DNA from: Candidatus Cloacimonadota bacterium
Lineage (GTDB): Bacteria > Cloacimonadota > Cloacimonadia > Cloacimonadales > WRIO01
DNA: 62,938 bases
Assembly (NCBI GenBank): GCA_029553545.1
Contig: JAKPKU010000237.1
Span: 1-62,938 of the forward strand
Direction: 5' to 3'
A program made the translations under genes and the position numbers. The notes below the pieces were generated by a model, which was given only the letters and a program-made list of their open reading frames with translations, made no database searches and was not told the DNA's origin. Positions 8,066 to 41,925 of the stretch are shown here, one piece after another (within the stretch, counting starts at the first letter, position 1; every line of letters starts with the position of its first letter).

Positions 8066-9139
8066 TTAAAGTCCGTCGATAACATTGTCTGCAAACCAAT
8101 CAATTATGAGTAATTCATAATCGTTTATTACTTTACCTTCATTCACGCGTAAATTACCATTATTATCATAAATGGGTCCACTAAATGGGTTTCTTAAATC
8201 ATTTTTTAATTCATACTTTCTTTTTTCTACTTCATCTTTTACTTCTTTTGGAACGGAATTATTAAATGGTGCTAAATCGACTAACCCTTCTTTAATGCCC
8301 CAAAAAATTGGTTCATTATCCCAAGTTTTATTATATACTTGCTCTGCAACATACTTGTACACGACATACCAATTCCAAATTGCTGCGGTAATTTGAGAAT
8401 TTGGAGCCAGTTTACTCATATCGTTACTATATCCAACAGATAAAAGCCCTTGACTTTCGGCTTCAATTTGTGTTGTAGAAGAGTCTGTATTATGTAAAAT
8501 AATATCACAACCCATTTTTTTAAACTCTTTAATATATTCAGTTTCTTTTTTTGGATCATTCCAAGAATTAGTCCATTTGACATATAATTTGGCATTGGGG
8601 TTTGTTGATTTAATACCAAGTGCATAACCATTAATATGCCAAATAACTTCAGGTATAGGTTCTGATGCCACTATTCCAATCTTGTTAGTCTTAGTTAGCA
8701 TTCCAACGCTTACTCCTGCTAAATAAGTTGCTTCTTGCATTTTACCTAAAAATGATCCAACATTAAATGCTCTGCCAGAATCACGACATTGCATAAAAGT
8801 GATATCAGGGTATTTGGTTGCAGATTCGATAACTGCATCGTAATGCTCATATGAAGCAGCAAAGATGAGTTTATAGCCATCATCAGCAAGTTCCGATATT
8901 ACTCGCATAGCATCTTCTTTTGTACTAATATTTTCAATGGCTATTGTTTTTTCTACAAAATCAAGCTGTTTAATCTGTTGTCTACCTTGTTCATGTGCAT
9001 AAGTCCATCCAGCATCGCCAATAGGTCCTACATAAATGAAAGCGATTTTAAGCTTATTGTTTTGATTAGTATTTTTATGACATGATGATACATTAAGTAA
9101 TAGCAATAAGCATATTAGCACTACTACAGTATTTTTCAT
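8066..9139 (-). CDS. BMP family ABC substrate-binding lipoprotein (tandem paralog)
   Basis: Lipobox VSSC and AFIYVGPIGDAGWTYAHEQGR. Collinear with the 6977-8047 protein. Confidence 0.9.
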   Translation of the reverse strand: MKNTVVVLICLLLLLNVSSCHKNTNQNNKLKIAFIYVGPIGDAGWTYAHEQGRQQIKQLDFVEKTIAIENISTKEDAMRVISELADDGYKLIFAASYEHYDAVIESATKYPDITFMQCRDSGRAFNVGSFLGKMQEATYLAGVSVGMLTKTNKIGIVASEPIPEVIWHINGYALGIKSTNPNAKLYVKWTNSWNDPKKETEYIKEFKKMGCDIILHNTDSSTTQIEAESQGLLSVGYSNDMSKLAPNSQITAAIWNWYVVYKYVAEQVYNKTWDNEPIFWGIKEGLVDLAPFNNSVPKEVKDEVEKRKYELKNDLRNPFSGPIYDNNGNLRVNEGKVINDYELLIIDWFADNVIDGL

Positions 9140-13724: not shown

Positions 13725-14097
13725 AATATTCTCACTTTCATTATATGTTTATTACATTATTTCATTTTTTTATATTTTGTCAAGGTTTTTCATATTTATT
13801 TTACGATATTTATATAATTGATTCTTGTAAGGGTTTAAATAGGAATATTTACAATAAAGATGTTAGCAAAATAATCAATAATCATATATATACAATTAGT
13901 AAACAACGATCTCCTTATTTATTGGAAGGACTATTATGGGTGGGGTAAAATTTATTTGAATCTAAATCTTCAGATGTCAATTTTAAGCAGTTTTATAAAA
14001 ATATTATTTGGTGCTTGCATGGTAAATAGAGTTTATTAATCTTTAGTTGATACAAATCTTAATTTTTATTAATTCACATTTTTAAGGCAATAAATGT

Positions 14098-14188
14098 CCC
14101 TTTGATCTCCTTTCGATACCTATAAGATTCTCGTTCATTCTCCAAGATAGCAAGGGGAATGTAAGAGGTATCAAAGGGGTAATGTATT
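14098..14188 (+). repeat. Phased 11-bp inverted-array element, copy 1
   Basis: CCCTTTGATCT/CCTTTCGATAC/CTATAAGATTC/TCGTTCATTCT, core CCAAGATAGCAAGG, then GGAATGTAAGA/GGTATCAAAGG/GGTAATGTATT. Confidence 0.85.
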
Positions 14189-14388
14189 GAAAGATAGTTC
14201 TTTCCAGTTTGTGTTATCATAAAGGTAAAAAGAGGGTAAAATGGTATATCTTGTAGGTTGATTTTAAGTGTAATTTACTATTATTTTGGAACTGAAGTCA
14301 GGGCGTAATAGCTTATATTTAGATATTAGTTTGTTTTGAATAAAGTAAAAATAGGGGAGGGGTGGTTACTTAGTAAATGAAATTATAT

Positions 14389-16863: not shown

Positions 16864-19800
16864 ATGAATGATTACAAACATCCAACAGCTAAAAAAAATA
16901 AGCATGGTATCAAAAAACCATTCGAAGAAGAGGTTTATAAAAATTTTCAATTAAAGGAAAATGATATCATTGCAGATAAATATCGTATTATAGAAAAGAT
17001 TAATTCAGGATTATTAAGTGAAGTATATCTTGTCGAAAACATGACAAATAATAAGTTCCAAGCAATTAAAATCTTTGGTAAATATAATGAGATCAGAGAC
17101 ATATACGATTTTATTCGTATCAATACAACCTTAATGCAAAAGCTTAATCATAAGAATATCGTTAAAATTAGCGATTTTATTGATTCAAATTATGTTTTAC
17201 AGGAAATGGAATACGTAAAAGGGAATTCACTTGAATCTTTGATATATAAAAAAGACATTAAGAAATCACAGCTTCTCCCCTACTCTTTACAAATAGCTGA
17301 AGCAATGAAAGAAGCACATGATAACAATATTCATCATACCGACTTAAAGCCTGCTAATATATTAATAAATGATCAAAACACAGTAAAGATAATAGATTTC
17401 TCACACCCTCAAATACATAAAATGTTATTTATCGAAGAAGTTTTGACAAATGAATATCTTGCACCTGAATTTTCAAACCTTACTAATGAGCCTGATGAAC
17501 TTGATTATAATCAACAAGATATATTTGCATTCGGAGTTACCTTATACGAATTATTGTATAAAAAACTACCTTTCCATAAAGATGGTAGAGTGATAAATTA
17601 TAAGATTCCAAGAAGAATAAGGCACAGTAAGAATCCTATTGATAAGATAATTAAAGGTTGTTTATACTATTATCCTGAAGATAGGTATCAAAGCTTTGAC
17701 GAAATAATTGAAGATTTAAAAAAGATTAAACCACAAAAAGACTTTTCATTCAATATGATTAAAAAAACTATTTCAAAGCAATTTAAGTTTACAAGCCTTA
17801 AACCATACATACAAGATGATTTTAAATACCTTTGGCTCGCTTTGTTGTCACTCTTTTTAATTCTACCGTTTTATCTAATTGTCCAAAGGAATACAGAAAC
17901 ACTTGACAATGAGATACTTATCGACTCTCCCCCATTTTCAACATACATTAATATGAACTATCAAGGTAAACCGCCATTTAAAACTCGATTGACCAAAGGA
18001 GATCACATAGAGTTTGTAGATGAGAATGGAAAGAGTCAATTTGAGATGATATATGACCAAGAAAAGAAAATAGACCTTAAGTTTACTAAGAAAAAGATTT
18101 TTTTAAATAATCGTCTTTATGGGCAAATTGTGGATAATGTAACAGACCTTCCTCTGAGCCCATCCCTTAAGTATGTTAAATCTAAAATCTATTTATCAAA
18201 GAAAGACTTTAAGCGACAAAAAAAGAGGCTAATTATTAGTCTGGGGGAGAATATAGATGAGCAGATATTGGATCAGTTGCCTGAAAAAACTGAATTTATA
18301 AATCTAAAAAACAATAATCGAATTCGAAGTATTAAAAAGCTCCTCAAGCTTCAAGGTTTACATGGGCTAAACCTTGAAGGCTCAACAGTTAATACTGATG
18401 ATATTAAAGAGTTTAGAAACCTCAAGCATTTAAATTTAAAAAAAACAAAAATCAAACGCATCTCCCCCATTGTCAGAAATTCTAAATTAAAGAATCTTGA
18501 TATAAGCAATACCGATATTAGATCAGTTGATGCGATTGTAAATCTGAAAAATATCGAAAACATTCATGTATCTGGCGATTCTCTCAAAGATATTAGACCA
18601 TTTTTAAATCTACCAAATCTAAAATCAATCAGCACTAATAGAGAAATATACCCTGACTTAGATATGGATTCATTAAATAGACTGATAAAGAATAATCATG
18701 AGCATCAAACGGTAAAACGTATTTACAATAATAAGAAAAAAAACAATTACAATTATATTATCTTTTTTTTAGTAACACTTTTAATGTCAATTATCATAGT
18801 CTTTTTGATAAGGATATTTTTCTATAGAAAGCATAACAATCTGCAGGAGTCACATCTTGATGAGCATGTCGAATCCACTGACGATGAGACAATTCCTAAA
18901 ACACAAAAATATAGTGATAGAGAAATTGGGCATATAAAAAAAGCTATTGCAGATAAGCGGCTACATTTACCTCCTAAAGATAATGCCTTATACTATCTTA
19001 GTGCTTTATTAAAAAACAATAATAACGATGAAACTCTTTTAGAGTTAAAGAATGAAGTCCTTAATAGTCTGAAAGAGAAATGTGAGTTACACACAAAACG
19101 TTCAGAACATGAAGCCGTATATCTTATTAGTTCTGAATGCAATAAGTTTTTCCCTGATCCAATTTATAGCAAAAAGCTAAATGAAATTAAGAGAAAGTTA
19201 ATTAAAAACTATGGGCTTCATATGGTTAAATTAAAAGGTGGTAAGTTCTTAATGGGAGACTACACTGTTCAATATACTGACAATTTTAACTCTGCTCACG
19301 AAGTACATTTAGATGCATTTAAAATAAGCCGGACTGTAATAACTAATAGCCAGTTCTGTGATTTTTTAAATTCACAAGGCAACCAAATAGAGTTCGGCAC
19401 ACCCTGGTATAAAGAAGATAGCCAGTATGCAAGAATAGAGAAATCCAAAAGTTTCTATGTGTGTAAAGAGCCTTACCAAGACTTCCCTGTATACGATGTC
19501 AGTTGGTTTGGTGCAGTGCGTTTTTGTGAATGGAAAGGTGGAAGGTTGCCTACTGAAGCTGAATGGGAGTATGCTGCTCGTTCTGGCGGCAAACAGCATC
19601 TTTACGCTGTTAAAGGCGAGTTAAATAAAAATAAGGCAAATTACCTTGTAGATATAAATGATACTTTGTGGCATTCTGTTTTTCCAGTCAAAAGCTTTAA
19701 ACCCAATAATGCTAAGCTTTATGAGATGAGCGGTAATATACTTGAATGGTGCCAAGACTGGTATGATAAGTATTATTATGAAATTTCACCTGATAAAAAC

Positions 19801-19953
19801 CCTAAAGGACCACAACAAGGCGAAATGAAGGTCGTACGAGGTGGTGCATGGTGCTTTGGAACTGAACATATGAAAACCTTTTACCGTGGTAGTGCAAAAC
19901 CTTTGACACGTAACAATTTTATAGGGTTCCGTATGGTAATACCCCATAATTAA
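16864..19953 (+). CDS. Hanks-type Ser/Thr kinase domain, TM, LRR, TM, FGE-sulfatase (SUMF1) domain fusion protein
   Basis: AIK, HTDLKPAN, DFS and YLAPE kinase motifs. Hydrophobic helices YLWLALLSLFLILPFYLIV and YIIFFLVTLLMSIIIVFLIRIFF flank LxxLxLxx repeats. C-terminal RLPTEAEWEYAAR, MSGNILEW, RGG and IGFR. Confidence 0.88.
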   Translation: MNDYKHPTAKKNKHGIKKPFEEEVYKNFQLKENDIIADKYRIIEKINSGLLSEVYLVENMTNNKFQAIKIFGKYNEIRDIYDFIRINTTLMQKLNHKNIVKISDFIDSNYVLQEMEYVKGNSLESLIYKKDIKKSQLLPYSLQIAEAMKEAHDNNIHHTDLKPANILINDQNTVKIIDFSHPQIHKMLFIEEVLTNEYLAPEFSNLTNEPDELDYNQQDIFAFGVTLYELLYKKLPFHKDGRVINYKIPRRIRHSKNPIDKIIKGCLYYYPEDRYQSFDEIIEDLKKIKPQKDFSFNMIKKTISKQFKFTSLKPYIQDDFKYLWLALLSLFLILPFYLIVQRNTETLDNEILIDSPPFSTYINMNYQGKPPFKTRLTKGDHIEFVDENGKSQFEMIYDQEKKIDLKFTKKKIFLNNRLYGQIVDNVTDLPLSPSLKYVKSKIYLSKKDFKRQKKRLIISLGENIDEQILDQLPEKTEFINLKNNNRIRSIKKLLKLQGLHGLNLEGSTVNTDDIKEFRNLKHLNLKKTKIKRISPIVRNSKLKNLDISNTDIRSVDAIVNLKNIENIHVSGDSLKDIRPFLNLPNLKSISTNREIYPDLDMDSLNRLIKNNHEHQTVKRIYNNKKKNNYNYIIFFLVTLLMSIIIVFLIRIFFYRKHNNLQESHLDEHVESTDDETIPKTQKYSDREIGHIKKAIADKRLHLPPKDNALYYLSALLKNNNNDETLLELKNEVLNSLKEKCELHTKRSEHEAVYLISSECNKFFPDPIYSKKLNEIKRKLIKNYGLHMVKLKGGKFLMGDYTVQYTDNFNSAHEVHLDAFKISRTVITNSQFCDFLNSQGNQIEFGTPWYKEDSQYARIEKSKSFYVCKEPYQDFPVYDVSWFGAVRFCEWKGGRLPTEAEWEYAARSGGKQHLYAVKGELNKNKANYLVDINDTLWHSVFPVKSFKPNNAKLYEMSGNILEWCQDWYDKYYYEISPDKNPKGPQQGEMKVVRGGAWCFGTEHMKTFYRGSAKPLTRNNFIGFRMVIPHN

Positions 19954-19956
19954 AGG

Positions 19957-20586
19957 ATGTACATGCGTAGTGTTTTAATTATTATATTTTCTTTTATTTC
20001 AATTAGCTTGTTTGCACAATATAGCGAAAGCCTTATTTCAGAAGCTTATGATGATATTGTGAGCTTGATGAACACAATGCCAAATGAGTCATCATTGATT
20101 CTTTATGAAGAATTTAATGGCAATTTTGGTGCTGAATTTACTAATGTATTAAAAGCTAAATTGAGCAAAGATAAAGGCTATAGTTTTATTAATGAGCAAG
20201 AGCAAAAACGTCTATTCTCTGAACAGTTGAAGCTAACTGATCCTATATATGACAATATGCCAGCTACACCTACACTGCAACCGCCTAAATGGCTTTTAAC
20301 AGGGGAAGCTAATTTATTGATTACTAAGAAATACTGGAAAAAGCACTATCTATTTAATATCAACTTTACTTTGTTAAATATACAAAATGGTACAAACGAC
20401 TTTATTTATGCTAAGAGTTTTAAAAGGAAATGGTCGCCACCGATTTTTATAACAGTAATAATCTTTATTGCTTTTATAGGTATTTTACGTTATATTGTAT
20501 ATAGTTTTAAAGGTTATTATGCTTTACAAGTGTATCTTAGCGGTACGCTTTTTTTAATAATCTATTTAATATGGGTATTTTTATAG
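19957..20586 (+). CDS. Exported hypothetical protein with two C-terminal TM helices
   Basis: Signal peptide ending SLFA and a hydrophobic C-terminus. Starts 3 nt after the kinase stop. Confidence 0.7.
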   Translation: MYMRSVLIIIFSFISISLFAQYSESLISEAYDDIVSLMNTMPNESSLILYEEFNGNFGAEFTNVLKAKLSKDKGYSFINEQEQKRLFSEQLKLTDPIYDNMPATPTLQPPKWLLTGEANLLITKKYWKKHYLFNINFTLLNIQNGTNDFIYAKSFKRKWSPPIFITVIIFIAFIGILRYIVYSFKGYYALQVYLSGTLFLIIYLIWVFL

Positions 20587-20598
20587 TTAGAGGGAGTT

Positions 20599-22101
20599 AT
20601 GAACATATCAGGTAAACTGTTATTAGAAGGCAAAAAAAGGGTATGGGATTTAGATACTTGGCTTGGGCAAACTAAAGATTTTATTATACAAGAGATCAAT
20701 TTATTTGCAAAGAAAGAGAAAAATGATACAATTTTTTTAAGGAAGACTATATATGAGAATATCCTTTCCTGTCTTACTAATAATAAAGTATTTACGAAAG
20801 AGATAAGGCAAAAAATTATTGTTTCATATATCTTTTTCCAAACTAAAGAATACAAGCTATCAGAAGAATATATAACTTCTATAATTGATAAAATCAATCC
20901 AAAGTCGACAGACGAGTATCGAGTCAGATCGTATATTGACTTTTGTTTCGCACAAATTTATTTGCAGAAAGCTGATTTTCGTCGATCAAATGAGTTCTTT
21001 ATAAAATCTTTTATTGGGCTTAAAGACAGTATGAGTCCACATGAAAAGGTCTTTTTTATACTGTCATGGATCTTCTTGTTTATAGAATGCAAATTTTATG
21101 ATTATACAGATCAACTTCTATCATTGATTAGCAGTTTCTATTTACCAAGACAAGATGACAACTATGCAAGACTACTCTACTTAAACTTTCTTAATCAAAA
21201 AAAACAGAATAATTTGGTTACTGCAATAAATTGGGCAAACATGCTCTTGCCCATGGATACTAATAATTTGGATGAAGATGACTGGTATTCTGTACATATT
21301 TTTGCTGGAGAATACTATGCCTCAATCAATAAAAACTTTGACAAGTCTATCTACCATTTTACTTTTGCTAACTCTTTTTTGTCATTAAAATGGAAAAAGT
21401 TTATTAACTTTATAAGTGAATTGAAAAACTATCTAAAGATTACTGATTATTTGAAAGTTAGGCTTGTTTATGAAGATAAGATGCTGGAAATTATCCTGGA
21501 AAACAATCTACACAGCTCGCACTATCTACACTCTTTAAAATCAGCATACGAAGAGCTGGAGATTTTGTATAAACAAGTGCGTGAAATGTCAATGACAGAC
21601 AGCCTTACAAGTTTGAATAATCGGCACTATTTATGGGACAAAGCACCTGAATTTATGAACCTTGCAAATCTCCAAAACGTAAGTATTAGCTGCATAATGA
21701 TCGATCTTGATGACTTTAAAGATATAAATGATTTATATGGTCACCAGATAGGCGATGATATCTTGAAACAGGTCGGAGCAATAATAAAGGGGGCTTTTAG
21801 AAGATCTGATATAGTAATAAGGTTTGGAGGGGAGGAGTTTTTAATACTACTTTTAAAATCAAACTTAGAAAATAGTAATATGTTGTGTCAAAAACTTAAA
21901 GAAAAAATAGAAGAGCATATCTTCAGTGTAAAAGGCATCGAAATCAAAATCAGTGTGTCTATAGGAATTAGCTATCGGAAGAATGTTGTAAATAGCATGA
22001 AATTACTTGAAGAAATGATTGAAGAAGCGGACTTAGCAATGTACTATTCAAAAACAAATGGTAAAAACCAAGTTACCTTTTATAAAAAAAAATGTAAGTG
22101 A
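20599..22101 (+). CDS. Diguanylate cyclase with helical (TPR-like) N-terminus
   Basis: [28 protein letters not shown]-site and GGEEF active site. Confidence 0.9.
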
Positions 22102-22108
22102 GGGAGAA

Positions 22109-23212
22109 ATGGCTCAAGTTTTAATAAAAAATGTGAACAAAATCTATGAAAATGGCTTTCATGCCGTTAAAGACGTCAATATTTTAGCAGAAGATGAAGA
22201 ATTTGTCGTTTTAGTTGGACCTTCAGGCTGTGGGAAAACAACTACTCTACGTATGGTCGCAGGCCTTGAAACAATCAGCTCAGGTGAGATATTAATCGAC
22301 AACAGGGTCGTCAATGATGTTTTACCAAAAGATAGAAATATAGCTATGGTCTTTCAAAACTATGCTTTATACCCACATATGACCGTTTTTGAGAATATGG
22401 CTTTTGCTTTAAAACTAAGAAAAATGAATAAAGCTGAGATCAAACAAAAAGTTAAAAACGCTGCTGAGATGTTAGGCATTGATATGCTTTTAGATAGAAA
22501 GCCAAAACAACTGTCAGGTGGTCAACGACAGCGTGTTGCTCTGGGAAGAGCTATTGTACGCAATCCACAAGTATTCCTATTTGATGAACCATTGTCTAAC
22601 CTTGATGCTAAAATGAGAGTACAAATGAGAGCTGAAATATCAAGACTGCATAAAAACTTGAAAACAACAATGTTATATGTTACTCATGACCAAATTGAAG
22701 CAATGACCATGGCTGACAAAATAGTTGTCATGAAAGATGGTGTGATACAACAAATTGGAAGCCCTTTAGACGTATATAATAAGCCATCAAATCTATTTGT
22801 GGCTGGCTTTATAGGAAGCCCTGCTATCAATTCATTCACAGGAAAGCTTTATACCGAAAACAACCAATTATTCTTTGTTTATGAAAACATGAAAATAGCA
22901 TTGACAAATGAACAAAGAAATGCAATAAAAGATTATAAGTCTGAAGAAATTATCTTTTCTATTAGACCAGAAGATATTTATGATGCAAACTTCGATAGCT
23001 TGATTGAGCAAAAACAAACAACAGAAGCCTTTTGTGAAATTGTAGAGCCTTTGGGAAATGAATATATGGTTTATTTAAAAATAGGCACAAAGGATATTAC
23101 TGCTCGTTTTGACCCTAAAAAGTTGCCTGAAACTAATAAGAATCTGATGGTAAGTTTTGATATATCAAAAACTCGCTTGTTTGATGTAAATACGCATCTA
23201 AGATTGTTTTAG
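22109..23212 (+). CDS. CUT1 sugar ABC transporter ATPase (MsmX/MalK/UgpC type)
   Basis: [24 protein letters not shown] and FVAGFIGSP. Start moved to the ATG at 22109 after GAGGGAG. Confidence 0.93.
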
Positions 23213-23220
23213 GCGTATTT

Positions 23221-24012
23221 ATGCAAGAAACATTATTTAAATTAAACCCAGAGAATAATATCGTTGCAGCTGCCATACATGCAGGAAGCCATATCAGAAA
23301 AGAACTGGAAGAGATAATAGGCTTAAACAGGAATATTCTTTTGCATGAAGAAGACCCGATGACTGATCATATTGCAATCTTGTTCGACTCTTTTATCATT
23401 CAAAATACAAGCAGGTTTGAATACGATACAAATAGACCTATATCCTCTGCAGTTTATCAAAAGCCACCGGATTGTTGGGGATTAGAAATATATCCAAACC
23501 AAATTGATAGCAAAATGGTGCTTATTTCAGAGAATAAATATCGTGAGTTTTATAAACACATTGATATGTTTTTTAATGAATTGTGCAAAGAACATAAACA
23601 AATATTTGTGTGGGATATACATAGCTTTAATAATAGAGGACGCCCAGATATTAGTCACGAGCATATAGACAATGCAGTGCCTGATATATGTTTGGGCACA
23701 AGCAATACTAACCCGAAGTTTCATGATTTATTTAAGGAAATAGCCAATAATATAGCGAGAGAAGACTATTTAGGAAAAAGACTTTCTGTAGAATTTAACA
23801 ATCCTTTTCCTGGCGGCACTTTTCCAAGGTATTTAAATGCAAACTTTGATGGCAAGGTCGTAGCGTTTACTCTTGAGATCAACAAAAGGATCTTTATGAA
23901 AAGCAATAAGCATCGATTTGATGAGTCTGATGCGATAATTGATTTGCGAGCCTTGGCAAGATTGAGAGAAATCATCCATAACCAAAGCTCGCTTATTAGT
24001 TCAAGTCTTTAA
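23221..24012 (+). CDS. hutG: N-formylglutamate amidohydrolase family protein
   Basis: AIHAG, EED, SRFEYDTNR, DIHSF, PDICLG, PFPGG and LEINK motifs. Confidence 0.8.
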   Translation: MQETLFKLNPENNIVAAAIHAGSHIRKELEEIIGLNRNILLHEEDPMTDHIAILFDSFIIQNTSRFEYDTNRPISSAVYQKPPDCWGLEIYPNQIDSKMVLISENKYREFYKHIDMFFNELCKEHKQIFVWDIHSFNNRGRPDISHEHIDNAVPDICLGTSNTNPKFHDLFKEIANNIAREDYLGKRLSVEFNNPFPGGTFPRYLNANFDGKVVAFTLEINKRIFMKSNKHRFDESDAIIDLRALARLREIIHNQSSLISSSL

Positions 24013-25031
24013 TCTTTTTTACTCTGTCTAATAATAGTTTTTGCAAAGTCAACCAAATACAAATCTATAGGGAAGAATGTTTTATTGATTTCTTTGACAA
24101 AACGTTCTGTTGCGGTCTTAATGCCTTCTTTTATTTTAGCTCTATTCTCCTTTTGATATTCCCTTACTTCTTTTTCAGGCACTTCTTCTTTGGTCTCCCA
24201 AGTAGCGAATATCCCGTCATAATCATTATAATCATAGTCTGTGCTGGGATAATAGCCGTATAAAGAAAGGTTGATTACATAGTCGATATCAGGTTCATAA
24301 AAAAGGTCTTTAACATTAAATGCCTTACCACCCCAAATTTTGTTCAATTCATCAGCTAACTCTTCAAGAATAGTATGCAACTTCTCTATTTTGAAGTTTT
24401 CTGGTTTTACCAATGCTTTTACTAATTCAACGAACTTTTATTCCAAATCATGCTTTAGTTGCTCTGTTGTTTCACTAAAGTAGTCAGAGAGTTTTCTGAG
24501 ATAAATGTCAACCCGAGTATCGAGGCTGTCATCGTTTGGACGTGTTTTCACTACACCAGGGTTTGATGGCAACTTATACCATTCAAAAGCTTCCATATAC
24601 TTTTCAGTGATTTCTTCGAAATGTTCATTTAACAAGTATCGTTTTATAAAACTAAATGGGTTGTCGACTTTACTATCGTATAAAAGCCTAACAGATTGTT
24701 TAATCTTTATTAATACATCTTCAGAAAGATCCTTAGCGTCAAAATCAGAGATAATATCAAAAAAGTCATAGTCCTCTTCATATTGATCAACGTAAGGCGC
24801 ATAGGTATTGAGATTATTAGACCTTCTTTGCTTTTCTTTTTCTACTTTTTGACGGAGCATTCTTTCTGCTAATTCAGCTTCACTGGGTTCTTTAGTTTCT
24901 TCTTTTTCATTCGCAAACGCACTAAAAAAGCTTCGAATGCCTTCAGCAAGGTTACGGGCTGTTACTTTTTCCACTTCTTCGACTTCTTCGACTTCTTCGT
25001 CGTGTCTTTCATTCAAGTCTTCGTTTTTCAT
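24009..25031 (-). pseudogene. Allele of the 25706-26773 gene interrupted by one in-frame TAA at 24438-24440
   Basis: Track ORFs 24438-25097 and 24009-24413 are in the same frame. DLE*KFVELV here corresponds to DLEKKFVQLL in the intact copy. ATG at 25031 follows GGAGG. Confidence 0.88.
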
Positions 25032-25062
25032 GTTATCCTCCATTTTGTTTTTTGTTGGCAGA

Positions 25063-25093
25063 ATTATAACATATGGTTTGGACACAGTGTGTC
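25063..25093 (-). promoter_or_regulatory. Putative WYL operator plus extended -10 promoter, copy 1
   Basis: Palindrome GACACA-G-TGTGTC at 25081-25093, 12 nt upstream of the TATAAT hexamer of a TGtTATAAT extended -10 (25071-25063). Confidence 0.7.
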
Positions 25094-25109
25094 TCAAGTG
25101 GTAAAAAAG

Positions 25110-25186
25110 TTGGCATATTTATTCAATTTATTTAAAGACTGCTTGATTACATCTATTAATTCTGTGAGTTACAATACTTTAACATT
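25110..25186 (-). pseudogene. Remnant 3' tail of the WYL regulator gene
   Basis: Translates NVKVL*LTELIDVIKQSLNKLNKIC, versus NVKVLEPQELIDEIKKPLKEINELY in 26852-27826. Confidence 0.8.
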
Positions 25187-25341
25187 AGACTTTGCATGAG
25201 CAAATTCTTTAAAAAAGTGAGAGTATAAAGATTGCTGCTGTTTCATAATCTCCAAATTACAAATTGAGAAATTATCACTACTTGAAAAATTAGATGATAA
25301 TACAAACCTTTTCTTACCTCATAAAAATTCATAATAAATCT

Positions 25342-25432
25342 CCTTTACATTTCCTTTAGAATCCTATAAGACTACCGTTCATTCTCCAAGATAGCAAGAG
25401 GAATGTCAACGGATTCATATAGGCATATTACT
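25342..25432 (+). repeat. Phased 11-bp inverted-array element, copy 2
   Basis: CCTTTACATTT/CCTTTAGAATC/CTATAAGACTA/CCGTTCATTCT, core CCAAGATAGCAAGA, then GGAATGTCAAC/GGATTCATATA/GGCATATTACT. Confidence 0.85.
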
Positions 25433-25626
25433 AATAAATAGACATATACAACAATAGAAAGAGACATGGTGATAAGTAGGGAAATCAGCCCTGATAATAG
25501 GAATATTTATTTTTATTGCCATCTTTAATATTAAAATATGGCTCTTTTCAAAATGTAATTTTCCCAGGCTGTTTTGATTCTCTGTGAAACAGCATCAGAT
25601 TATACAGGTCAACTTCTATCCATTAT

Positions 25627-25703
25627 TAATTGATTTACGAGCCTTGGCAAGGTTGAAAGAAATCATTCATAATCAAGGCTCGCTTATTAGTTCAAGTCTT
25701 TAA
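25627..25703 (+). pseudogene. Orphan duplicate of the last 24 codons of hutG
   Basis: IDLRALARLKEIIHNQGSLISSSL* versus IDLRALARLREIIHNQSSLISSSL* at 23938-24012. Confidence 0.9.
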
Positions 25704-25705
25704 TA

Positions 25706-26773
25706 TTATCTACTCTGCTTAACAATAGTTTTTGCAAAGTCAACCAAATGCAAATCGATTGGGAAGAATGTTTTATTGATTTCATTTGCAAAGCGATCAT
25801 ATGCAGTCTTAACTGCATCTTTTATTTTAGCTTTGTTCTCCTTTTGATATTTTCTTACTTCTTCCTCAGTTACTTCTTCTTTACTTTCCCAAGTGCAGAA
25901 TATTCCATCATAATCATTATATTTATAATCTATGTCGGGATAATAGCCGCTTAAAGAAAGATTTACTACGTAGTCAATATCAGGTTCGTAAAATAAGTCT
26001 TTAACACTAAATGCTTTAGCACCCCAAATTTGATTCAATTCATCAGCTAATTCGCCAACAATTGCATGCAATCTTTCTATTTTGAAGTTTTCAGGTTTAA
26101 TGTACGCTTTTAATAATTGAACGAATTTTTTCTCCAAATCATACTTTAGTTTCTCTGTAGTTTCACTAAAGTAATCAGAGAGTTTTCCGAGATAATCATC
26201 TATACGGTTGCTAATACTGTCATCATTTGGGCGTATTTTTACTACACCAGGGTTAGATGGCAGCTTATACCATTCAAAAGCTTCCATATAAGTTTCAGTA
26301 ATCTCTTTGAAATGTTCATTTAACAAGTATTGTTTTACAAAACTAAATGGGTTGTCAATTTTGTAATCATATAAAAGCTTTACAGATTGTTTAATCTTTA
26401 TTGTTACGTCTTCAGAAAGATCCTTAGCATCAATGTTTGAGATAAGCTCTAAAAAGTCATATTTTTCGACATCTTGATCAATATAAGGTGCAAGTATTGT
26501 AAGGTTTTCAGCCTTTCTTTGTTTTTCCTTTTTTGCATTTTTGAAGTTTTCAATGATTTTTTGCTTTTCCTCTTTTGATTTAGGATTAAGCCAGAAGAGA
26601 ATGTTTTTGAGTTCTAATTCTTCTTCATTTAGCTCTCTACCACTGGGTTCTTTAGGTTCTTCTTTTTCATCTGAAAACATACCAAAAAGATTTTGCATGC
26701 CTTCCCAAATATTATTAAGTTTTAGTTCTTCCACTTCTCTGTCGTGTCTTTCATTCAAGTCTTCGTTTTTCAT
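25706..26773 (-). CDS. Hypothetical acidic, helical protein (gene X), putative WYL-regulated target, 355 aa
   Basis: Intact ORF with ATG at 26773 after GGAGG (MKNEDLNERHD). No recognisable catalytic motif. Confidence 0.85.
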   Translation of the reverse strand: MKNEDLNERHDREVEELKLNNIWEGMQNLFGMFSDEKEEPKEPSGRELNEEELELKNILFWLNPKSKEEKQKIIENFKNAKKEKQRKAENLTILAPYIDQDVEKYDFLELISNIDAKDLSEDVTIKIKQSVKLLYDYKIDNPFSFVKQYLLNEHFKEITETYMEAFEWYKLPSNPGVVKIRPNDDSISNRIDDYLGKLSDYFSETTEKLKYDLEKKFVQLLKAYIKPENFKIERLHAIVGELADELNQIWGAKAFSVKDLFYEPDIDYVVNLSLSGYYPDIDYKYNDYDGIFCTWESKEEVTEEEVRKYQKENKAKIKDAVKTAYDRFANEINKTFFPIDLHLVDFAKTIVKQSR

Positions 26774-26804
26774 GTTATCCTCCATTTTGATTTTTATGGG
26801 CTGG

Positions 26805-26835
26805 ATTATAACATATGGTTTGGACAGAGTGTGTC
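26805..26835 (-). promoter_or_regulatory. Putative WYL operator plus extended -10 promoter, copy 2
   Basis: GACA-GAGTG-TGTC at 26823-26835, 12 nt upstream of the TATAAT hexamer of a TGtTATAAT extended -10 (26813-26805), and 16 nt past the WYL stop. Confidence 0.7.
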
Positions 26836-26851
26836 TCAAGTGGAGAAAGTT

Positions 26852-27826
26852 TTAGTATAATTCGTTTATTTCTTTTAAGGGCTTTTTTATTTCATCTATT
26901 AATTCTTGAGGCTCTAATACTTTAACATTTGCGCCATATGATAAAACATATTTCTTTATTTCATTTATGGAGGTTGCTGGTATTTGTAATAAGACTTTAC
27001 CATCATCGAGTAATTTGACTTTTTGTTTTGGGTGCCAAATGCGCTCTTTGATGTAAGCTGCAATCTTTTCAGAGAAAAGCAGTTTAACTTGAAATGGCTT
27101 TCCCGCATATATACCAAAGGAATCTTCAAAGAATTTTTGTGCATTAAACTCAACATTGTCTCTTGGTTCGGAAACAATCTCTGTGCTACGCATACGGTTT
27201 ATGGCATATATAAGAATTGCTTTTCTCTCTTTAGAAAAGGCTGCAATATAGATATTATTCTCATGAATCTTTAGGCATAATACGGTTACCAAGTGTTCTT
27301 TTTCGGTATTGGATAAGACACTATTATATTTAAAATACAATTTTTTACCTTGTATTAGAGACTGTAAAATCTTTTTCAAGTTTTTACTTTCTTCTTGGTT
27401 CCATACAATTGTTGATTTGGTATCTGGCAGAATTGAGTTCCATACCTTTTGATAGAATTTTAATAATTCTGGAGAAGATTGGCTATGCATCTTGTCAAAA
27501 CAGTTTTTTACTACATCATCAAAGTAGCTTTGTAAAGGATGTGCACTCTTAAACATAAATAACAAAGTTAAAAACTCTTCTTGATTAAAGCTTATAGATG
27601 GGAATCTATAATGTGGGAGCATTTTGTAAATAACTTGGTTGTTCTGACTAATGTTTTCAGAATAAATAGGAAAAGATAAAGAAGAAAGATATGAAATATC
27701 ACGCTGAATTGTTTTTTTAGATACCCCTCTTTCCCTTGCAAGAGTACTTAAGGAGATTCCTCTATTGGCATGAGCATAAATACTCTGCAAAATGCACCAC
27801 TGCCTAAAAAAGCTTTTTTCTTCCAT
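26852..27826 (-). CDS. HTH-WYL-WCX transcriptional regulator (YafY/DriD/PafB-like)
   Basis: N-terminal HTH (LARERGVSKKTIQRDI), WYL core (FKYNS..NIYIAA..YAINRM), SFGIY, and WCX (ERIWHPKQ, LSYGANVKVLEP). Confidence 0.93.
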   Translation of the reverse strand: MEEKSFFRQWCILQSIYAHANRGISLSTLARERGVSKKTIQRDISYLSSLSFPIYSENISQNNQVIYKMLPHYRFPSISFNQEEFLTLLFMFKSAHPLQSYFDDVVKNCFDKMHSQSSPELLKFYQKVWNSILPDTKSTIVWNQEESKNLKKILQSLIQGKKLYFKYNSVLSNTEKEHLVTVLCLKIHENNIYIAAFSKERKAILIYAINRMRSTEIVSEPRDNVEFNAQKFFEDSFGIYAGKPFQVKLLFSEKIAAYIKERIWHPKQKVKLLDDGKVLLQIPATSINEIKKYVLSYGANVKVLEPQELIDEIKKPLKEINELY

Positions 27827-27828
27827 GC

Positions 27829-28242
27829 TTACTTCATAAACGTACAGTTCTGAGCAAACTTATAACCATCTGCATTCCTAAAAAGCTGGACTTTCTTTTT
27901 ACCTATATAAAGTTGAGCATTTTTCACTATTTGCTCAGGTCTATTAATCTGTTGTTTTTCTTTCTCATTGTATAATCGAACTTCAACATTGCCCCCATTT
28001 AAAAATTCAGAAAGAGATGATACAATGATCTCTTGTCTAAGCCCGATTTTTGTAGTTGAAAAATGGATTACTTCATCATCATTTACATAAATACCATGAT
28101 TGTAATATGGCGTAAAGGTATCCCATCTTTTTACCCTGATGTGGTCTCCAAACTTTGGGTTATCATATTTCCATTGGCTTTTATTTTTAAATAACGAAAA
28201 ACCTTGTACACCCAAATCTGGCACATTATTCTTACTTTTCAT
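27829..28242 (-). CDS. LRAT / permuted NlpC-P60 family protein, probably catalytically inactive
   Basis: GDHIRV, NHGIYV, VIHF, SLSEFL and A..YIG pattern. The canonical NNCEHFA motif is replaced by NADGYKFA. Confidence 0.8.
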   Translation of the reverse strand: MKSKNNVPDLGVQGFSLFKNKSQWKYDNPKFGDHIRVKRWDTFTPYYNHGIYVNDDEVIHFSTTKIGLRQEIIVSSLSEFLNGGNVEVRLYNEKEKQQINRPEQIVKNAQLYIGKKKVQLFRNADGYKFAQNCTFMK

Positions 28243-28253
28243 TTTTCTTACCT

Positions 28254-29384
28254 TTAAAAGGATATGGACATTGATTCTTGTCCATTCTGTTTTTTAGGTT
28301 CTTGTAAGGAAATACGGTCGCCAGCCTTTAGCCCCTGCAAGATTTCTACTTTTTGTAAATCATTGATACCCAATTTCACTTGTACACTTTGCTTAATAGA
28401 GTCTTCTGTTGCAAAGTATACTATGTCATTGCCTTGTTCATCATTAAAGATTGCTCTAATTGGTATAGTTACAATTTTAGAGCGTTTTTCACCGTATATT
28501 GTAACATTGGCTGAAAGTCCTGGTTTTAATCGATTATCTTTTTGACTTATAACGATTTCTACAGGAAAGACTTTAACATTGTTTTCAGAAATAGCTTTTG
28601 CTGAGATCTTACTAATAAAGCCATTATAAGAGTCATATGGGAAGGCATCAATATGTATATCGCATTGTTGTTTCATCTTAATTTTTGCAATATCAACCTC
28701 ATTTATAGTGGTTTTGACGAGCATTTGAGTTATGTCTGCCACTTTAATTAAAACAGTTCCATCGCTATATGAACTATTACTTGAAGAAACCATCTCCCCC
28801 TCTTCTACATTGCGCTCTATAACAGTTCCTGAAGCTGTTGCGTACACTTTTGAGACATTATTTGAAGTATCAATTTCTTTTATTAAATTAAACTGGTCTA
28901 ATGTTATATTGTAGTCAAGCCTTGCCTTTTCGAGTTCATCTTTTGCATCATCAAATTCTTTTGTTGATACATAATCGCCACGGTGTAAAGTTTGTATGTT
29001 TTCAAAGTTATTTTCTGCATTTCTGAGCCGAATTTCAGCAACTTTAAGCTCATTTTTGATTGATGATATACTACGGGCTTGATTGTAATCAGGTTCTATA
29101 TCAGCTATTAAATCGCCAACTTTTACATAATCATTTTCATCAACATATAGTTTCAACACCTTGCCGCTAATTTTTGATTTAATTGCAATTTCTTTTATGG
29201 GTTGTATTTCACCAATTTCTTCTATTTTGATGGTTATTTCTCCCAGAGTAACTTCAAGAGTTTGTATTTTTTGAGTATCGACTACTTTATCTTTTTTCTT
29301 GGCAAAAACGAATATTAGAATAGCTACTATAATAATGATTATTATTGCCAATACGACCCATTTCTTTTTAGATTTTTTCTTCAT
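28254..29384 (-). CDS. MacA-like efflux periplasmic adaptor subunit
   Basis: N-terminal TM, ISGKV lipoyl motif, coiled-coil hairpin, INEVDI and LKPGLSA. Confidence 0.9.
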   Translation of the reverse strand: MKKKSKKKWVVLAIIIIIIVAILIFVFAKKKDKVVDTQKIQTLEVTLGEITIKIEEIGEIQPIKEIAIKSKISGKVLKLYVDENDYVKVGDLIADIEPDYNQARSISSIKNELKVAEIRLRNAENNFENIQTLHRGDYVSTKEFDDAKDELEKARLDYNITLDQFNLIKEIDTSNNVSKVYATASGTVIERNVEEGEMVSSSNSSYSDGTVLIKVADITQMLVKTTINEVDIAKIKMKQQCDIHIDAFPYDSYNGFISKISAKAISENNVKVFPVEIVISQKDNRLKPGLSANVTIYGEKRSKIVTIPIRAIFNDEQGNDIVYFATEDSIKQSVQVKLGINDLQKVEILQGLKAGDRISLQEPKKQNGQESMSISF

Positions 29385-29394
29385 TTGCCCTCCC

Positions 29395-30654
29395 CTACCA
29401 TCTATCTAATATTTTATTAGATTTGAGATAATTCAATTCTTGTTGCTTTTTTAAAAGTGTATAATATTTAGAATTCATGCTTAACTGTGCTTCGAGGTAT
29501 TGTATTCTTGATTTATCAAGATCAAGAATATTTATCAGACCCATTTCAAAACGCTTTTGTGCAATTTCTAAGTGAGTTGTTGATAATGCAAGCTTTTGCT
29601 TGTATATTTCATAGCTTTGTTTATAAATATTGAACTCATTAATTGATTGCTGGTATTTGACCTTTTGCTGGCTGGTAAGGTCTTTGTGGTTAATCTCTAA
29701 CATCTTACTTTGCTTTTTTTGTACACTATGCACTGACCCTTTATCTAAAAAGCTAAACAATGGGTATGAGAAATAGACCCCATAAGTATAAGAATCATCA
29801 TACTCTTTTGGTTTAAAAATAGGGTTAGCCTCTTTATCGGTAACCCCAACTCTATAAGCATAACCGAAATAGATATTTGGGTAGAGCGATAATTGGGAGG
29901 AAGTGATATTTAGTTTGTTTTGTTTTAACTTGTTTTCACTGATCTTGATTGCATTATTATCAGTAAAATCGTTTTCGATACTATCTGTATTTGATAATTC
30001 AATATCCTCAAATTCATATCCTAAATCCTCGGTATTGAGCATTTGAAATAAGTCTTGCCTTTTTGAATACAAAGTCTTCTCAAGCTCTAACAGATCGGTC
30101 ATTGCAGTCAGTGTATCTATTTGGCTGGCTTGTAAATCGTATATTGTCTTTTTATCGTTCAAATACTGAATGTTTATTTGTTCATATATCTTTTTTTGCA
30201 AGAGGAAGTTTTCATTAAGGATATTTATATTCTTTTGAGTCTGGAGTATATCTATAAATAGATAAAATACATTCAAAGCTATTTCTTTTTTCTTATCTTC
30301 AAATTCGAGTTTGCTATTAGTTTTTTCAAGTCGTGTTTTTTTAAAATTAAAATAAGTTGGATCATTTAAATAAATGTTTTTTGAAACAGACAAAGAGGAA
30401 TTATATTGCCGACCCATTGTCCCATCTTGCGCAGAGAGATTATAATCGGCATTTGGTAAGAAATCATATATTGCTGAATTATAGTTTTGATCTGTAATAT
30501 CTTTTTGAATTTGTTCAAGCTGCATACTATTTGAATTTTGTATTGCAATGCTTATTAAATCGACTAATTCATATTTCTCAGCAAACAGTGCATTTAGCCA
30601 GCCGACAGCTACTATGCACGCAATTATAAATACCTTTTTATGTGATTGATGCAT
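29395..30654 (-). CDS. TolC family outer membrane protein
   Basis: Signal peptide, twofold OEP repeat (FLP, LYP, RFEMG..NILDL), adjacent to the adaptor gene. Confidence 0.85.
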   Translation of the reverse strand: MHQSHKKVFIIACIVAVGWLNALFAEKYELVDLISIAIQNSNSMQLEQIQKDITDQNYNSAIYDFLPNADYNLSAQDGTMGRQYNSSLSVSKNIYLNDPTYFNFKKTRLEKTNSKLEFEDKKKEIALNVFYLFIDILQTQKNINILNENFLLQKKIYEQINIQYLNDKKTIYDLQASQIDTLTAMTDLLELEKTLYSKRQDLFQMLNTEDLGYEFEDIELSNTDSIENDFTDNNAIKISENKLKQNKLNITSSQLSLYPNIYFGYAYRVGVTDKEANPIFKPKEYDDSYTYGVYFSYPLFSFLDKGSVHSVQKKQSKMLEINHKDLTSQQKVKYQQSINEFNIYKQSYEIYKQKLALSTTHLEIAQKRFEMGLINILDLDKSRIQYLEAQLSMNSKYYTLLKKQQELNYLKSNKILDRW

Positions 30655-30706
30655 TATATCTCCTTTTTTATAATAATATATGCATTTTTTATGCCATGGC
30701 TAATAA

Positions 30707-32626
30707 TTAATTTAAGAAGTTCCAGCGTATTTGACCAGAAAACTGCATTAAGTTGATTTCTTCTGCTAAATAGCTTCCTTCATTGGTGATATTATGGGCT
30801 TTAATTGTAATGTCAAAAAGCTTTGTTATCTGTATTTTTGCAAAAATATCAGTAATAAAAGAACGTTCACTAATAGCAGTTTTAGTAATAACTTGATCTG
30901 CAAAATATGTATCAACGCCAAGAGTTACATAGTTGTCTCTATGAAAATCTCTCTTAATTGCGATTTGAGTTTTATTTAAAAACCTTGGTTCGTAGTGTAG
31001 GATATCAGTGTTTTGGTATTCAAGTAATTGTCTCATATTCAAAGTATATAAGCTATATGGTATAGAAATATTATTTTTAAGAGTGACAAATGCATAGCTT
31101 TCTTCTTGACTGTACATATTATCGTAGTAAAGAGTCTGGCTTTGCTTTCTATTGCCAATGACTATTTCTGAATTGCTCTGTGCCCAATTCATTGCAAGGT
31201 TAATGCCTATTTGATTTTTTACATTCTGATTAACAAAAAGGTTCTTGTTAAAGATAGAATTAAAACTGTTATTATAAAAAGAAACCCCAAGTGCATAGTG
31301 TTTCATAAAGGTAATGTCAGCTTTGGAACTTAACTGTTTCTCAGAATTTTTAGCATCGTATATGAATTCATTGTCAAAAGACAAGATGCCTTTATTAAAA
31401 TTATGATTAACTCCTAATAATGAATTTACTTCTTTATTATATGAGATAGAGTCTAAGTCGGTATTAAGATCTTTGGTGTAATACTGCCAAAATAGGTCGA
31501 ATTTGTTATTAAAAAGTGGTTTGGGTAGTTGTATGCCTAATAGATAAGATTTGCTCTGAAAATCGATTTTTTGCATAGAGCTAACACTCTGTTTTTCATG
31601 AACTTTGTTGTAACCCAAAAATAAGTTTTTATAAGAACCTAAAGCCCAAGATTCATAGCTTTTCTCATTTATTAAGTCTTCTATCCCATTAGCAAAATAG
31701 TAATTATTCAAGCGCTCTGAAGAATAATCATGGTCATGATTTTCATATCCAATATTTACATTAAAGCCGTTTCTTTTATAGGAAACGCTATTTCGCATGA
31801 TTGCTGCACTTTCATTAATCTGAGGGACTTCTCCCTGATAAGCAAGAAAACTGCTCTCAAACAATAAATTCTCTATGTTAAAAACATGGTTCTTTTCTGC
31901 TTTAACATTTGCAAAAGAAATGTTGTTCTCTGCCATTGCTAAATCAGCAGAAATCAGCATAACTTGCTCTGGATAGTTTTGAGTATGGATATTTGTGATA
32001 TTAATCTTATTTTCTTCAAAATGATATAAATTAATATTATTTTGATATAAAAGGTTAAGGTTTTTATTGTTATAATTACTTATAAAGCCATTTTTCTTAA
32101 TAATCTGATTATGATATAATAATCCTTTTGGATATACATTTACAGGGTAATAAAAGTTATTATAGTATGATTTATCCTTTTCTGCTATGTTTCGTTCTAT
32201 ATAATTTTCAATCTGTATTTTAAGTGTATCTGGATCAATACCTTTCTTTTTCATAAATAATTTATCAAAAATATTAGGTTGATTGTTTTCTATTTCGAAT
32301 ATCACTACCAGCTCTTCGGCTACTGTTTCTTTATTTTTATAAGCAGGTGTAAAAATGCTTTTATTCAGTGCGTCAATGATGTACATTGATATATCATTTG
32401 CGCTTTCAGGCATATGTAATATTTCAAAAGATCCGTCTTCCTTAATTAATAATTGAATTTCAACTATCTGCTTTTTAATTCGAAGGTTGTCTGGGAACTC
32501 TGGTTTAGCAAGTTTTATCACTTCTGCCTTAGATGAATCAGGAACGACTATGTAATTGTCTGCAAATAATAAAACATTGATACTTAGAAAAATAAAAACT
32601 AATAATTTGGTTAAAGATGTTTTCAT
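30707..32626 (-). CDS. Exported protein with TonB C-terminal-like domain fused to a probable outer-membrane beta-barrel
   Basis: Signal peptide, then KPEFP..VEIQLLIKEDGS..FTPAYKN (TonB_C pattern). The C-terminal two-thirds has alternating aromatic beta strands ending QIRWNFLN. Confidence 0.6.
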   Translation of the reverse strand: MKTSLTKLLVFIFLSINVLLFADNYIVVPDSSKAEVIKLAKPEFPDNLRIKKQIVEIQLLIKEDGSFEILHMPESANDISMYIIDALNKSIFTPAYKNKETVAEELVVIFEIENNQPNIFDKLFMKKKGIDPDTLKIQIENYIERNIAEKDKSYYNNFYYPVNVYPKGLLYHNQIIKKNGFISNYNNKNLNLLYQNNINLYHFEENKINITNIHTQNYPEQVMLISADLAMAENNISFANVKAEKNHVFNIENLLFESSFLAYQGEVPQINESAAIMRNSVSYKRNGFNVNIGYENHDHDYSSERLNNYYFANGIEDLINEKSYESWALGSYKNLFLGYNKVHEKQSVSSMQKIDFQSKSYLLGIQLPKPLFNNKFDLFWQYYTKDLNTDLDSISYNKEVNSLLGVNHNFNKGILSFDNEFIYDAKNSEKQLSSKADITFMKHYALGVSFYNNSFNSIFNKNLFVNQNVKNQIGINLAMNWAQSNSEIVIGNRKQSQTLYYDNMYSQEESYAFVTLKNNISIPYSLYTLNMRQLLEYQNTDILHYEPRFLNKTQIAIKRDFHRDNYVTLGVDTYFADQVITKTAISERSFITDIFAKIQITKLFDITIKAHNITNEGSYLAEEINLMQFSGQIRWNFLN

Positions 32627-41630: not shown

Positions 41631-41925
41631 AAATCCTCCCTTGAAAGCATAAGAAGCTTTACTAAATAAAATATAATATTCACACTATATTTAAACAAAT
41701 TAAAACTATAACAATTTTTGTCAAGAAAATTCACATTATATTTGATTGTTTTCTTTAATACTCTCAAAAGTAAATTGACTTTTTGTGATAATATTTATAG
41801 ATATCCATTCGTATTTAGCTATACTTAGTATTTTAAGATTTCTTAATCTCAATGCTTTACGCTGCCAGGATAACAAAAAAAAGAACTTATTATTAATATT
41901 ATTAATTAAATTGTATGTTTAAAAA

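Follow-up and report, generated by a model that had tools for sequence, protein, structure and literature searches.

When a circular molecule integrates into a chromosome by a single crossover of the Campbell type, as is also the case for the translocatable units of the insertion sequence (IS) IS26, two direct copies of the shared segment are left as complementary mosaics around the non-homologous "vector" DNA. Gene families are also said to expand by transfer rather than by duplication, the added members being xenologues, an argument that is reportedly that of Treangen and Rocha 2011. Johnston et al. 2013 (PLoS Genet, PMC3784515) describe how an incoming fragment that pairs in an alternative register can give a tandem duplication (merodiploid) by homologous recombination, and in their account the duplicated copies evolve independently, with one that can be inactivated and another that is functional. 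The locus considered here lies in the window, a stretch of 62,938 bp that is the entire contig C94 (JAKPKU010000237.1) of the 268-contig, 2.88-Mb draft genome (G000) of a Candidatus Cloacimonadota bacterium. Within it a gene that we call X is present twice in direct orientation, as a pseudogene (X1) and as an intact gene (X2), each with the ends of both neighbouring genes, and there is about an even chance that X2 is a diverged allele that was added to the resident one by recombination, in association with an IS.

The order of the genes is a hutG-like FGase gene, X1, a relic of the 3' end of a WYL-regulator gene, a spacer of 440 bp, a relic of the 3' end of hutG, X2, a helix-turn-helix (HTH)-WYL-WCX regulator and a gene for an LRAT/NlpC-P60-like protein (Table 1). 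The block of hutG tail, X and WYL tail therefore occurs twice, at 23936-25186 and at 25627-26929, as had been proposed in the original prediction, which was made from the letters of the window. The two blocks are direct repeats with 82.6% identity across 920 nt and 76.6% across 308 nt, and neither has a further copy in the 2.88 Mb of G000. The outer borders at 23936 and 26929 lie within the hutG and WYL coding sequences and carry no copy of an IS or of the miniature inverted-repeat transposable element (MITE) that makes up most of the spacer; had unequal crossover between repeats on either side made the tandem duplication, one repeat should be shared by the joint and the two outer borders, and this is not seen.

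The duplication is real and fixed. At least 57% of the sampled words of the structure are present in 20 public sequencing runs, which come from 13 studies on digesters, wastewater and activated sludge, and the runs with only 57-68% of the words might be candidate single-copy strains. In 4 of the 4 runs that were compared, from 4 studies dated 2016-2025 and one of them possibly the source sample itself, contigs with 0 mismatches lead from WYL tail 1 through the junction into the MITE (for example 25018-25398) and from the MITE through the junction and hutG tail 2 into X2 (for example 25377-26770), and at both joints the depth of these contigs is equal to that of the flanks. The contigs of the compared runs break at internal repeats, as expected. 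As both new joints are bridged without mismatch in 4 studies, the structure is not an assembly artefact, and the X1 fragment and X2 are both present in two independent public assemblies. A separate observation is that in one contig of the biogas-fermenter run X5 position 24998 is joined to 26741 via 49 shared letters, with 1742 nt skipped; this could be a strain without the insertion, a collapsed form or a path through the assembly graph, which are indistinguishable, and the contig is not used as evidence.

X1 and X2 do not pair with each other as closest relatives. In the metagenome contig L008, which follows window positions 18000-31000 collinearly with 87-91% nucleotide identity over 13 kb, a single X stands between WYL and hutG, and the genome of another species of the genus (G001) likewise has one X, in the order FGase-X-WYL-LRAT. 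The state with a single X is thus ancestral, or has been restored in these relatives. The protein of X1 is identical to that of L008 (P0002) at 294 of 343 positions (86%) with 0 gaps, whereas X1 and X2 are 75% identical and X2 and P0002 65%. With G001 as the outgroup, 12 informative amino-acid sites of the four-taxon comparison group X1 with L008 and leave X2 outside with G001, against 3 and 3 for the two other groupings. This outcome bears on a point that the original prediction had held against itself, that the two alleles might prove to be sisters, which for X they are not.

The synonymous divergence (dS) of the body of X is 0.50 between X1 and L008, 0.675 between X1 and X2 and 0.79 between X2 and L008. 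For the flanking orthologues of G000 and L008 it is 0.43-0.70 in six of seven genes, with TolC at 0.16, and the value for X1 falls in the range of those six. A recent local duplication followed by fast evolution of X2 was rejected, as the synonymous divergence of X1 from X2 exceeds that of X1 from L008. The ratio of nonsynonymous to synonymous divergence (dN/dS) is 0.08 between the orthologues and about 0.2 (0.18-0.20) in comparisons with X2, being 0.20 for X1 and X2. X1 itself is interrupted by a single in-frame TAA, at a site that is covered without a differing letter in 4 of the 4 runs compared, and neither of its indels relative to X2 (69 nt and 18 nt) breaks the frame; it follows from this combination of one stop with indels in multiples of three that X1 evolved as a gene until recently.

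The relationship of the copies to L008 does not stay the same along the block. In a three-way alignment of 24013-24880 there are 129 sites unique to copy 2 and 38 unique to copy 1, whereas in the WYL tail at 25109-25149 there are 11 unique to copy 1 and 2 unique to copy 2. Across the 60 nt of 25123-25182, copy 2 matches L008 at 53 positions, copy 1 matches L008 at 46, and the two copies match each other at 43. The point at which copy 1 takes over from copy 2 as the odd one out lies in the region of the N-terminus and leader of X, which holds a stretch of 44 nt that is identical in the two copies (25004-25047 and 26746-26789). The copies are thus complementary mosaics with one switch point, which is what single-crossover integration leaves behind. 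As read from the site patterns, the mosaic fits a single reciprocal crossover between the resident locus and an incoming diverged copy, although the collapse of an old duplication in L008 would predict the same.

The spacer is more composite than was first thought. The original prediction had described it as 440 bp of unrelated DNA, and whilst the length holds, it is not one unrelated unit, being made up of a MITE of 363 bp, its 5-bp target-site duplication and an older junction of 72 bp. At its left, this older junction begins with a remnant of the end of a high-copy IS-like repeat. An ungapped hand count gives 32 of 44 positions identical to the end of the repeat, so that the remnant is approximately 27% diverged from the live IS copies; its score is 24, which was reached by 0 of 2000 shuffles (maximum 17). 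WYL homology stops at 25187/25188 and the similarity to the IS sets in no more than 2 nt from there, such that the terminus of the IS stands at the breakpoint, and as the remnant abuts the breakpoint a role for the IS in making it is suggested. What is present at the site is ~42 nt, with no intact IS and no transposase of a known family, and no other significant source for the left 47 nt of the junction was found in the genome.

The IS-like repeat is found with 96-99% identity at at least 19 places in G000, mostly at the ends of contigs (for example C40:1-218, C55:1-213 and C128:15141-15352), and with 98% identity at the end of a contig of another species (G001:C54:10882-11052). These identities suggest a recent burst of the repeat as well as its spread between species. 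Short old remnants of it, at 82-86% identity, also occur. The search of G000 and 20 relatives found no assembled copy that is complete, but only ends at contig breaks and such short old remnants.

The remainder of the older junction is a 31-nt piece that resembles the inside of a resident GGDEF gene. Its best ungapped score within 10 kb on either side is 20, reached by 0 of 200 shuffles (maximum 16), and it matches the GGDEF gene of L008 at 25 of 31 positions. The junction is therefore a patchwork recording three separate mobile-DNA events, the end of an IS, a copied scrap of a gene and a later MITE.

The MITE, which the original prediction had called the phased element, belongs to a family of many dispersed copies, which are too short to hold a transposase gene. 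An nhmmer profile of 345 positions built from the spacer gave 87 matches in G000, of which 17 are nearly full length. In most of these 17, the left end (consensus GAGGCTGTTGCA) is the reverse complement of the right end (TGCAACACCCTC), the copy in the window being degenerate with approximately 9 of 12 positions at the left end (hand count). A perfect 5-bp direct repeat flanks seven of the 17 in exact register, among them the window copy (AGATT/AGATT), where the chance of one perfect 5-bp match is estimated by hand at ~0.002. Inverted ends, a target duplication of fixed length and many dispersed short copies are the hallmarks of a MITE, and all are found here. It is apparent from its own AGATT duplication that the MITE landed in the 72-bp junction when this already existed, as its removal restores the older junction as one continuous sequence. 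Two partial copies of the same family, with the conserved centre only, are present elsewhere in the window at 14088-14264 (model positions 87-263) and 61890-61992 (77-180). A scan of 23000-28000 against Rfam at E<=1 gave two chance-level matches only, and no RNA family for the spacer.

The tails of the neighbouring genes differ in their apparent age. Of the 77 sites of the hutG tail, 6 are not the same in tails 1 and 2, four of them synonymous and the others giving R>K and S>G, in agreement with the counts made in the original prediction. In hutG tail 2 there are 5 unique changes in 77 nt, and in the GGDEF-like piece about 2 in 31. For DNA that had been neutral since X1 and X2 split, approximately 20-26 differences would be expected per tail (about 1/3 of sites; a hand calculation from a proportion of synonymous differences, pS, of 0.445), and as the observed changes are far fewer, both pieces are either young or were constrained until recently. 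When polarised with G001, hutG tail 2 has three derived states in common with the hutG of G000 as opposed to L008, including a P>S replacement, with counts of 3:1:0, and the 31-mer has two in common with the GGDEF gene of G000 and one opposite (2:1, hand count), although these counts rest on few sites. The shared derived states point to a close relative, or the lineage of G000 itself, as the source of tail 2 and the 31-mer, with X2 being older.

WYL tail 1 is of a different character, with a stop, about 10 replacements in 20 codons and ~20% unique changes, its translation running ...NVKVL-stop-LTELIDVIKQSLNKLNK as compared with ...NVKVLEPQELIDEIKKPLKEINELY-stop. A further feature of the hutG tails is a hairpin of 10-12 bp that is predicted in the last 25 codons of hutG in both tails of G000 and in L008, with z of -1.5 to -2.6. 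Its pairing is preserved by two of the six differences between the tails, and one stem pair is C-G, U-G and U-A across the three sequences. Seen from X, which is read from the opposite strand, the hairpin follows the stop codon by ~26 nt (for tail 2 the stop of X2, on the minus strand), a position which suggests that it may be a common 3'-end structure of the convergent genes. A terminator was considered and the hairpin is not called one, having a 27-nt loop and no T-run and being absent from a consensus terminator scan.

The sequence of events that we favour would start from a resident locus of the order FGase(hutG)-X-WYL-LRAT with a single X, as is seen in L008 and G001. Homologous recombination may then have added a second X cassette that was already diverged and that stemmed from a different lineage of this locus. 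Read in order, the block that came in would have consisted of a WYL' tail, an IS end, leftover upstream DNA, a hutG' tail and X'. The crossover with the resident X would have been in the conserved 5' leader (approximately 25004-25108, equivalent to 26746-26850), either by Campbell-type integration of a circle or, equally, with a linear fragment that brought in the join-point of a duplication. Copy 1 would then consist of the resident hutG and body of X1 followed by a foreign WYL tail, and copy 2 of a foreign hutG tail and body of X2 followed by the resident leader and WYL. The breakpoint in WYL' may have been made by the insertion of an IS or by the formation of an IS-made circle. Later deletions would have trimmed the junction to 72 bp, the MITE would have transposed into it at AGATT, and the resident X1 would have gained its nonsense mutation, with X2 left as the working copy. 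With such an import, one step is enough to explain why the body of X2 and the WYL tail are old and the hutG tail and GGDEF scrap G000-like, why the copies form a mosaic and why the duplication is stable. Copies that differ by 18% from the outset would be expected to resist collapse. An old X2 beside a younger tail 2 and 31-mer would be in keeping with a close relative that had an allele of an old class.

Other explanations differ widely in how well they agree with these observations. An assembly chimera of two co-occurring strains would be in keeping with a draft in 268 contigs, with contigs that break at repeats and with the one contig of run X5 that follows the path from 24998 to 26741, and yet, with 100%-identical contigs spanning both novel joints in all four runs at the depth of the flanks, with a MITE target duplication that links the two sides of the spacer and with two independent assemblies that have the X1 fragment and X2, it is hardly credible at all; the original prediction had itself raised strain mixing as a danger, and it is answered by these joints. 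It is also very improbable that the MITE captured the flanking fragment, carried it in and now stores alternative alleles, as the original prediction had proposed from the position of one copy between the two blocks. The MITE has inverted ends and a perfect AGATT duplication and lifts out to give a continuous junction, so that it sits inside older DNA rather than being joined to captured DNA, and the like 5-bp duplications at seven of 17 near-full-length copies point to ordinary cut-or-copy insertion. Furthermore, 72 bp of DNA foreign to the MITE, the IS-end remnant and the GGDEF-like piece, part it from the duplicated blocks. The 3-kb left and right flanks of each copy were compared at E<=1e-6, with 13 of the 87 dropped for flanks of <300 bp, and 5 of the 74 testable copies gave a flank-to-flank match, as did 11 of 300 random positions, the copy in the window being the only one with a match of >170 bp. 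None of the 73 other testable copies flanks a gene-sized duplication, a lack of linkage that was to count against the proposal from the start, and the idea that the element mobilises flanking DNA and alleles is therefore unsupported.

A more serious alternative, possible but less probable than import, is an old local tandem duplication that took place before the split from L008. It would have been IS-associated and have spanned at least hutG to the 3' end of WYL, perhaps from within the GGDEF gene, after which the paralogues diverged, L008 collapsed to a single copy by a crossover in the 5' region of X, and G000 was trimmed by deletions. This account predicts the three-sequence mosaic equally well. 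The ~20% unique changes and stop of WYL tail 1 and the 32 of 44 matches of the IS remnant are approximately what neutral DNA as old as the X1/X2 split should show, the raised dN/dS on the side of X2 (0.18-0.20 vs 0.08) is common after duplication, and the 31-nt piece, copied from a gene at a distance of 4.5 kb, has the look of a templated insertion in a chromosome with this neighbourhood. The lack of a donor in public data is also accounted for. It would account for the conserved hutG tail 2 by a whole second hutG until recently, by the hairpin or by gene conversion. However, the 31-nt piece (~2 unique changes) and hutG tail 2 (5 of 77) look too young for dead DNA that pre-dates the split of G000 and L008, and both scraps have derived states of the resident genes of G000 as opposed to L008, so that extra events such as a late templated deletion or gene conversion are needed, as is an independent and precise collapse in L008. 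Identical tandem copies are also unstable, and their survival to divergence needs long selection.

Several points weigh against import in their turn. Loss in L008 by a crossover between two old copies would yield the same three-sequence mosaic, and the contrast in topology between the tail and 31-mer (5:2) and the body of X (3:12) rests on few sites, without a formal test. WYL tail 1 and the IS remnant look as old as the X1/X2 split, which fits an old local event equally, or an IS that had long been resident in the WYL of the donor. The coding-like pattern of hutG tail 2 is no proof of a separate lineage, as it may instead reflect a conserved hairpin or a former complete second hutG in the same genome. 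A donor lineage for X2 was also not seen in public data: a word-indexed protein search gave two clusters, the seven representatives of an exhaustive search are all G000, L008-type or distant, and in a collection of 15 billion proteins all six X2-type proteins are the G000 form (<=1 amino-acid difference), with L008-type being the sole other lineage. A scan of metagenomes with the X1-type query P0002 returned only L008. The missing donor in databases is no proof of its absence in nature. The original prediction had preferred capture of a fragment from a relative by single crossover over a local tandem duplication, and this is plausible overall, being favoured by the outgroup position of X2 and the switch in the mosaic, with its link to the element refuted and no donor found. 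Its further suggestion that both hutG tails evolved as functional gene ends in different lineages is upheld in so far as tail 2 is too conserved for DNA dead since the X1/X2 split, and is weakened by the other origins of that pattern and by the lack of a donor.

Table 1. Positions of the features at the X locus. Coordinates are those of the window unless L008 is named; a dot marks a feature without a strand.
Feature	Position	Strand	Remarks
Site resembled by the 31-nt piece	21100-21130	+	Inside resident GGDEF gene, 4.5 kb upstream
FGase (hutG-like) gene	23221-24012	+	PF05013, E 7.7e-20; 89% amino-acid identity to L008 orthologue, dS 0.48
hutG tail 1	23936-24012	+	Last 77 nt of FGase gene; left end of copy 1
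hutG hairpin	23946-23991; ~25638-25681 (10-bp stem); L008 ~5290-5340		Predicted
X1 (gene X copy 1), pseudogene	24009-25097	-	In-frame TAA 24438-24440; likely ATG 25041-25043; orthologous to the single X of L008
Putative crossover zone, odd-one-out switch from copy 2 to copy 1	24881-25108 (= 26641-26850 in copy 2)	.	From site patterns
WYL tail 1	25109-25188	-	Relic of last ~26 codons of WYL-regulator gene; stop and many replacements; most diverged of the three tails
IS-end remnant	25188-25229	+	Outer ~42 nt of high-copy IS-like repeat; 18/18 and 19/20 letters shared with repeats that end contigs
MITE target-site duplication	25229-25233 and 25597-25601		AGATT, 5 bp
MITE ("phased element")	25234-25596	+	363 bp, imperfect terminal inverted repeats
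GGDEF-like piece	25598-25628	+	31 nt; 27/31 to 21100-21130; continuous with 25230-25233 before the MITE
hutG tail 2	25627-25703 (feature listed to 25705)	+	77-nt hutG 3' relic attached to no gene
X2 (gene X copy 2), intact	25706-26839	-	377-amino-acid open reading frame; likely ATG 26783-26785
WYL tail 2	26852-26929	-	Last 78 nt of intact WYL regulator; orthologous to L008 tail
HTH-WYL-WCX regulator, intact	26852-27826	-	PF25583, PF13280, PF08279; PADLOC WYL models; 91.7% amino-acid identity to L008
LRAT / NlpC-P60-like protein gene	27829-28242	-	PF04970, E 3.5e-13; kept neighbour of X and WYL; also in G001 and G003

The product of X has no match in Pfam, NCBIfam or PADLOC, and an exhaustive search of 1.84 billion proteins found only 7 representatives of the family, one of which is the X1 fragment itself. 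An AlphaFold2 (AF2) model consists entirely of helices with a mean pLDDT of 73, and X belongs to an orphan protein family that is predicted to be all-helical. With Foldseek the model had no match in the PDB at E<=0.001, and VIA-align gave only generic matches to helical bundles such as the stalks of dynamin, IniA and Mx, with Z of 8-9 and a root-mean-square deviation of >7 A, which is too weak to be meaningful for helical bundles.

The neighbours of X in G000, L008 and G001 are the WYL regulator and the LRAT/NlpC-P60-like protein. In a further genome, G003, a homologue of X lies between a gene for a DUF676-type esterase and an LRAT-like gene (locus L004, G003:C7:32176-36018), and there is no WYL gene within the 3.8 kb of this locus, which makes the LRAT-like gene the more regular neighbour of X in the loci examined.

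It is a doubtful, though conceivable, extension of these observations that X is a locus of fast turnover, at which old allele classes outlast the splitting of species and new alleles are stacked by recombination of IS-made fragments, with the resident then silenced. By analogy with genes of the immunity and defence type, alleles at such a locus would be replaced step-wise via a transient two-allele state, which is equally doubtful. If this were so, the window would have caught a midway state, in which X2 is intact and X1 has one stop codon, fixed in each of the four populations examined.

Other repeats are also present in the contig. A diverged direct repeat of 211 nt with 73% identity is formed by window positions 7469-7679 and 8555-8765, at a spacing of 1086, and it also appeared among the random-position controls as a flank-to-flank match of 330 nt at 70%; it is possibly a second tandem gene duplication. 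A direct repeat of 178 nt with 85% identity joins 41925-42102 and 51618-51795, which are 9.7 kb apart.

If import is true, this is a natural case, in uncultured Cloacimonadota, of a diverged second allele being gained at its homologous locus instead of replacing the resident one, with the old allele then decaying, and it would be one route from transfer to apparent paralogues. The idea of a dispersed repeat that mobilises and archives alleles is removed.

The mechanisms considered here are not new in kind, and the event, well documented at this locus, is of an ordinary type. The locus is like the transformation merodiploids of Johnston et al. (PMC3784515) in that a duplication arises from recombined incoming DNA and one copy is silenced. 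Those merodiploids, by the same account, are of 100-900 kb, bordered by IS861, of near-identical DNA and seen in the laboratory, whereas here the unit is of 1.3-1.7 kb, the copy is ~18% diverged, the outer borders are without a repeat and the event is one that we infer. In having the remnant of an IS terminus exactly at one breakpoint the locus is like Campbell-type integration, but unlike such cases no intact IS, circle or donor is seen, and ~42 nt of the end of the IS remain. The element in the spacer is like the bacterial MITEs (Correia, ERIC, RUP and the Tn3-derived TIMEs) in being short, with inverted ends, a fixed target duplication and tens of diverged copies, and it has no demonstrable part in the duplication. 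X2 is like a xenologue in that it is a second member of its family beside the first and is older than the split of the species, but unlike xenologues that arrive from elsewhere it is found at the homologous locus with scraps of both neighbouring genes, and is hence an allele of the same locus.

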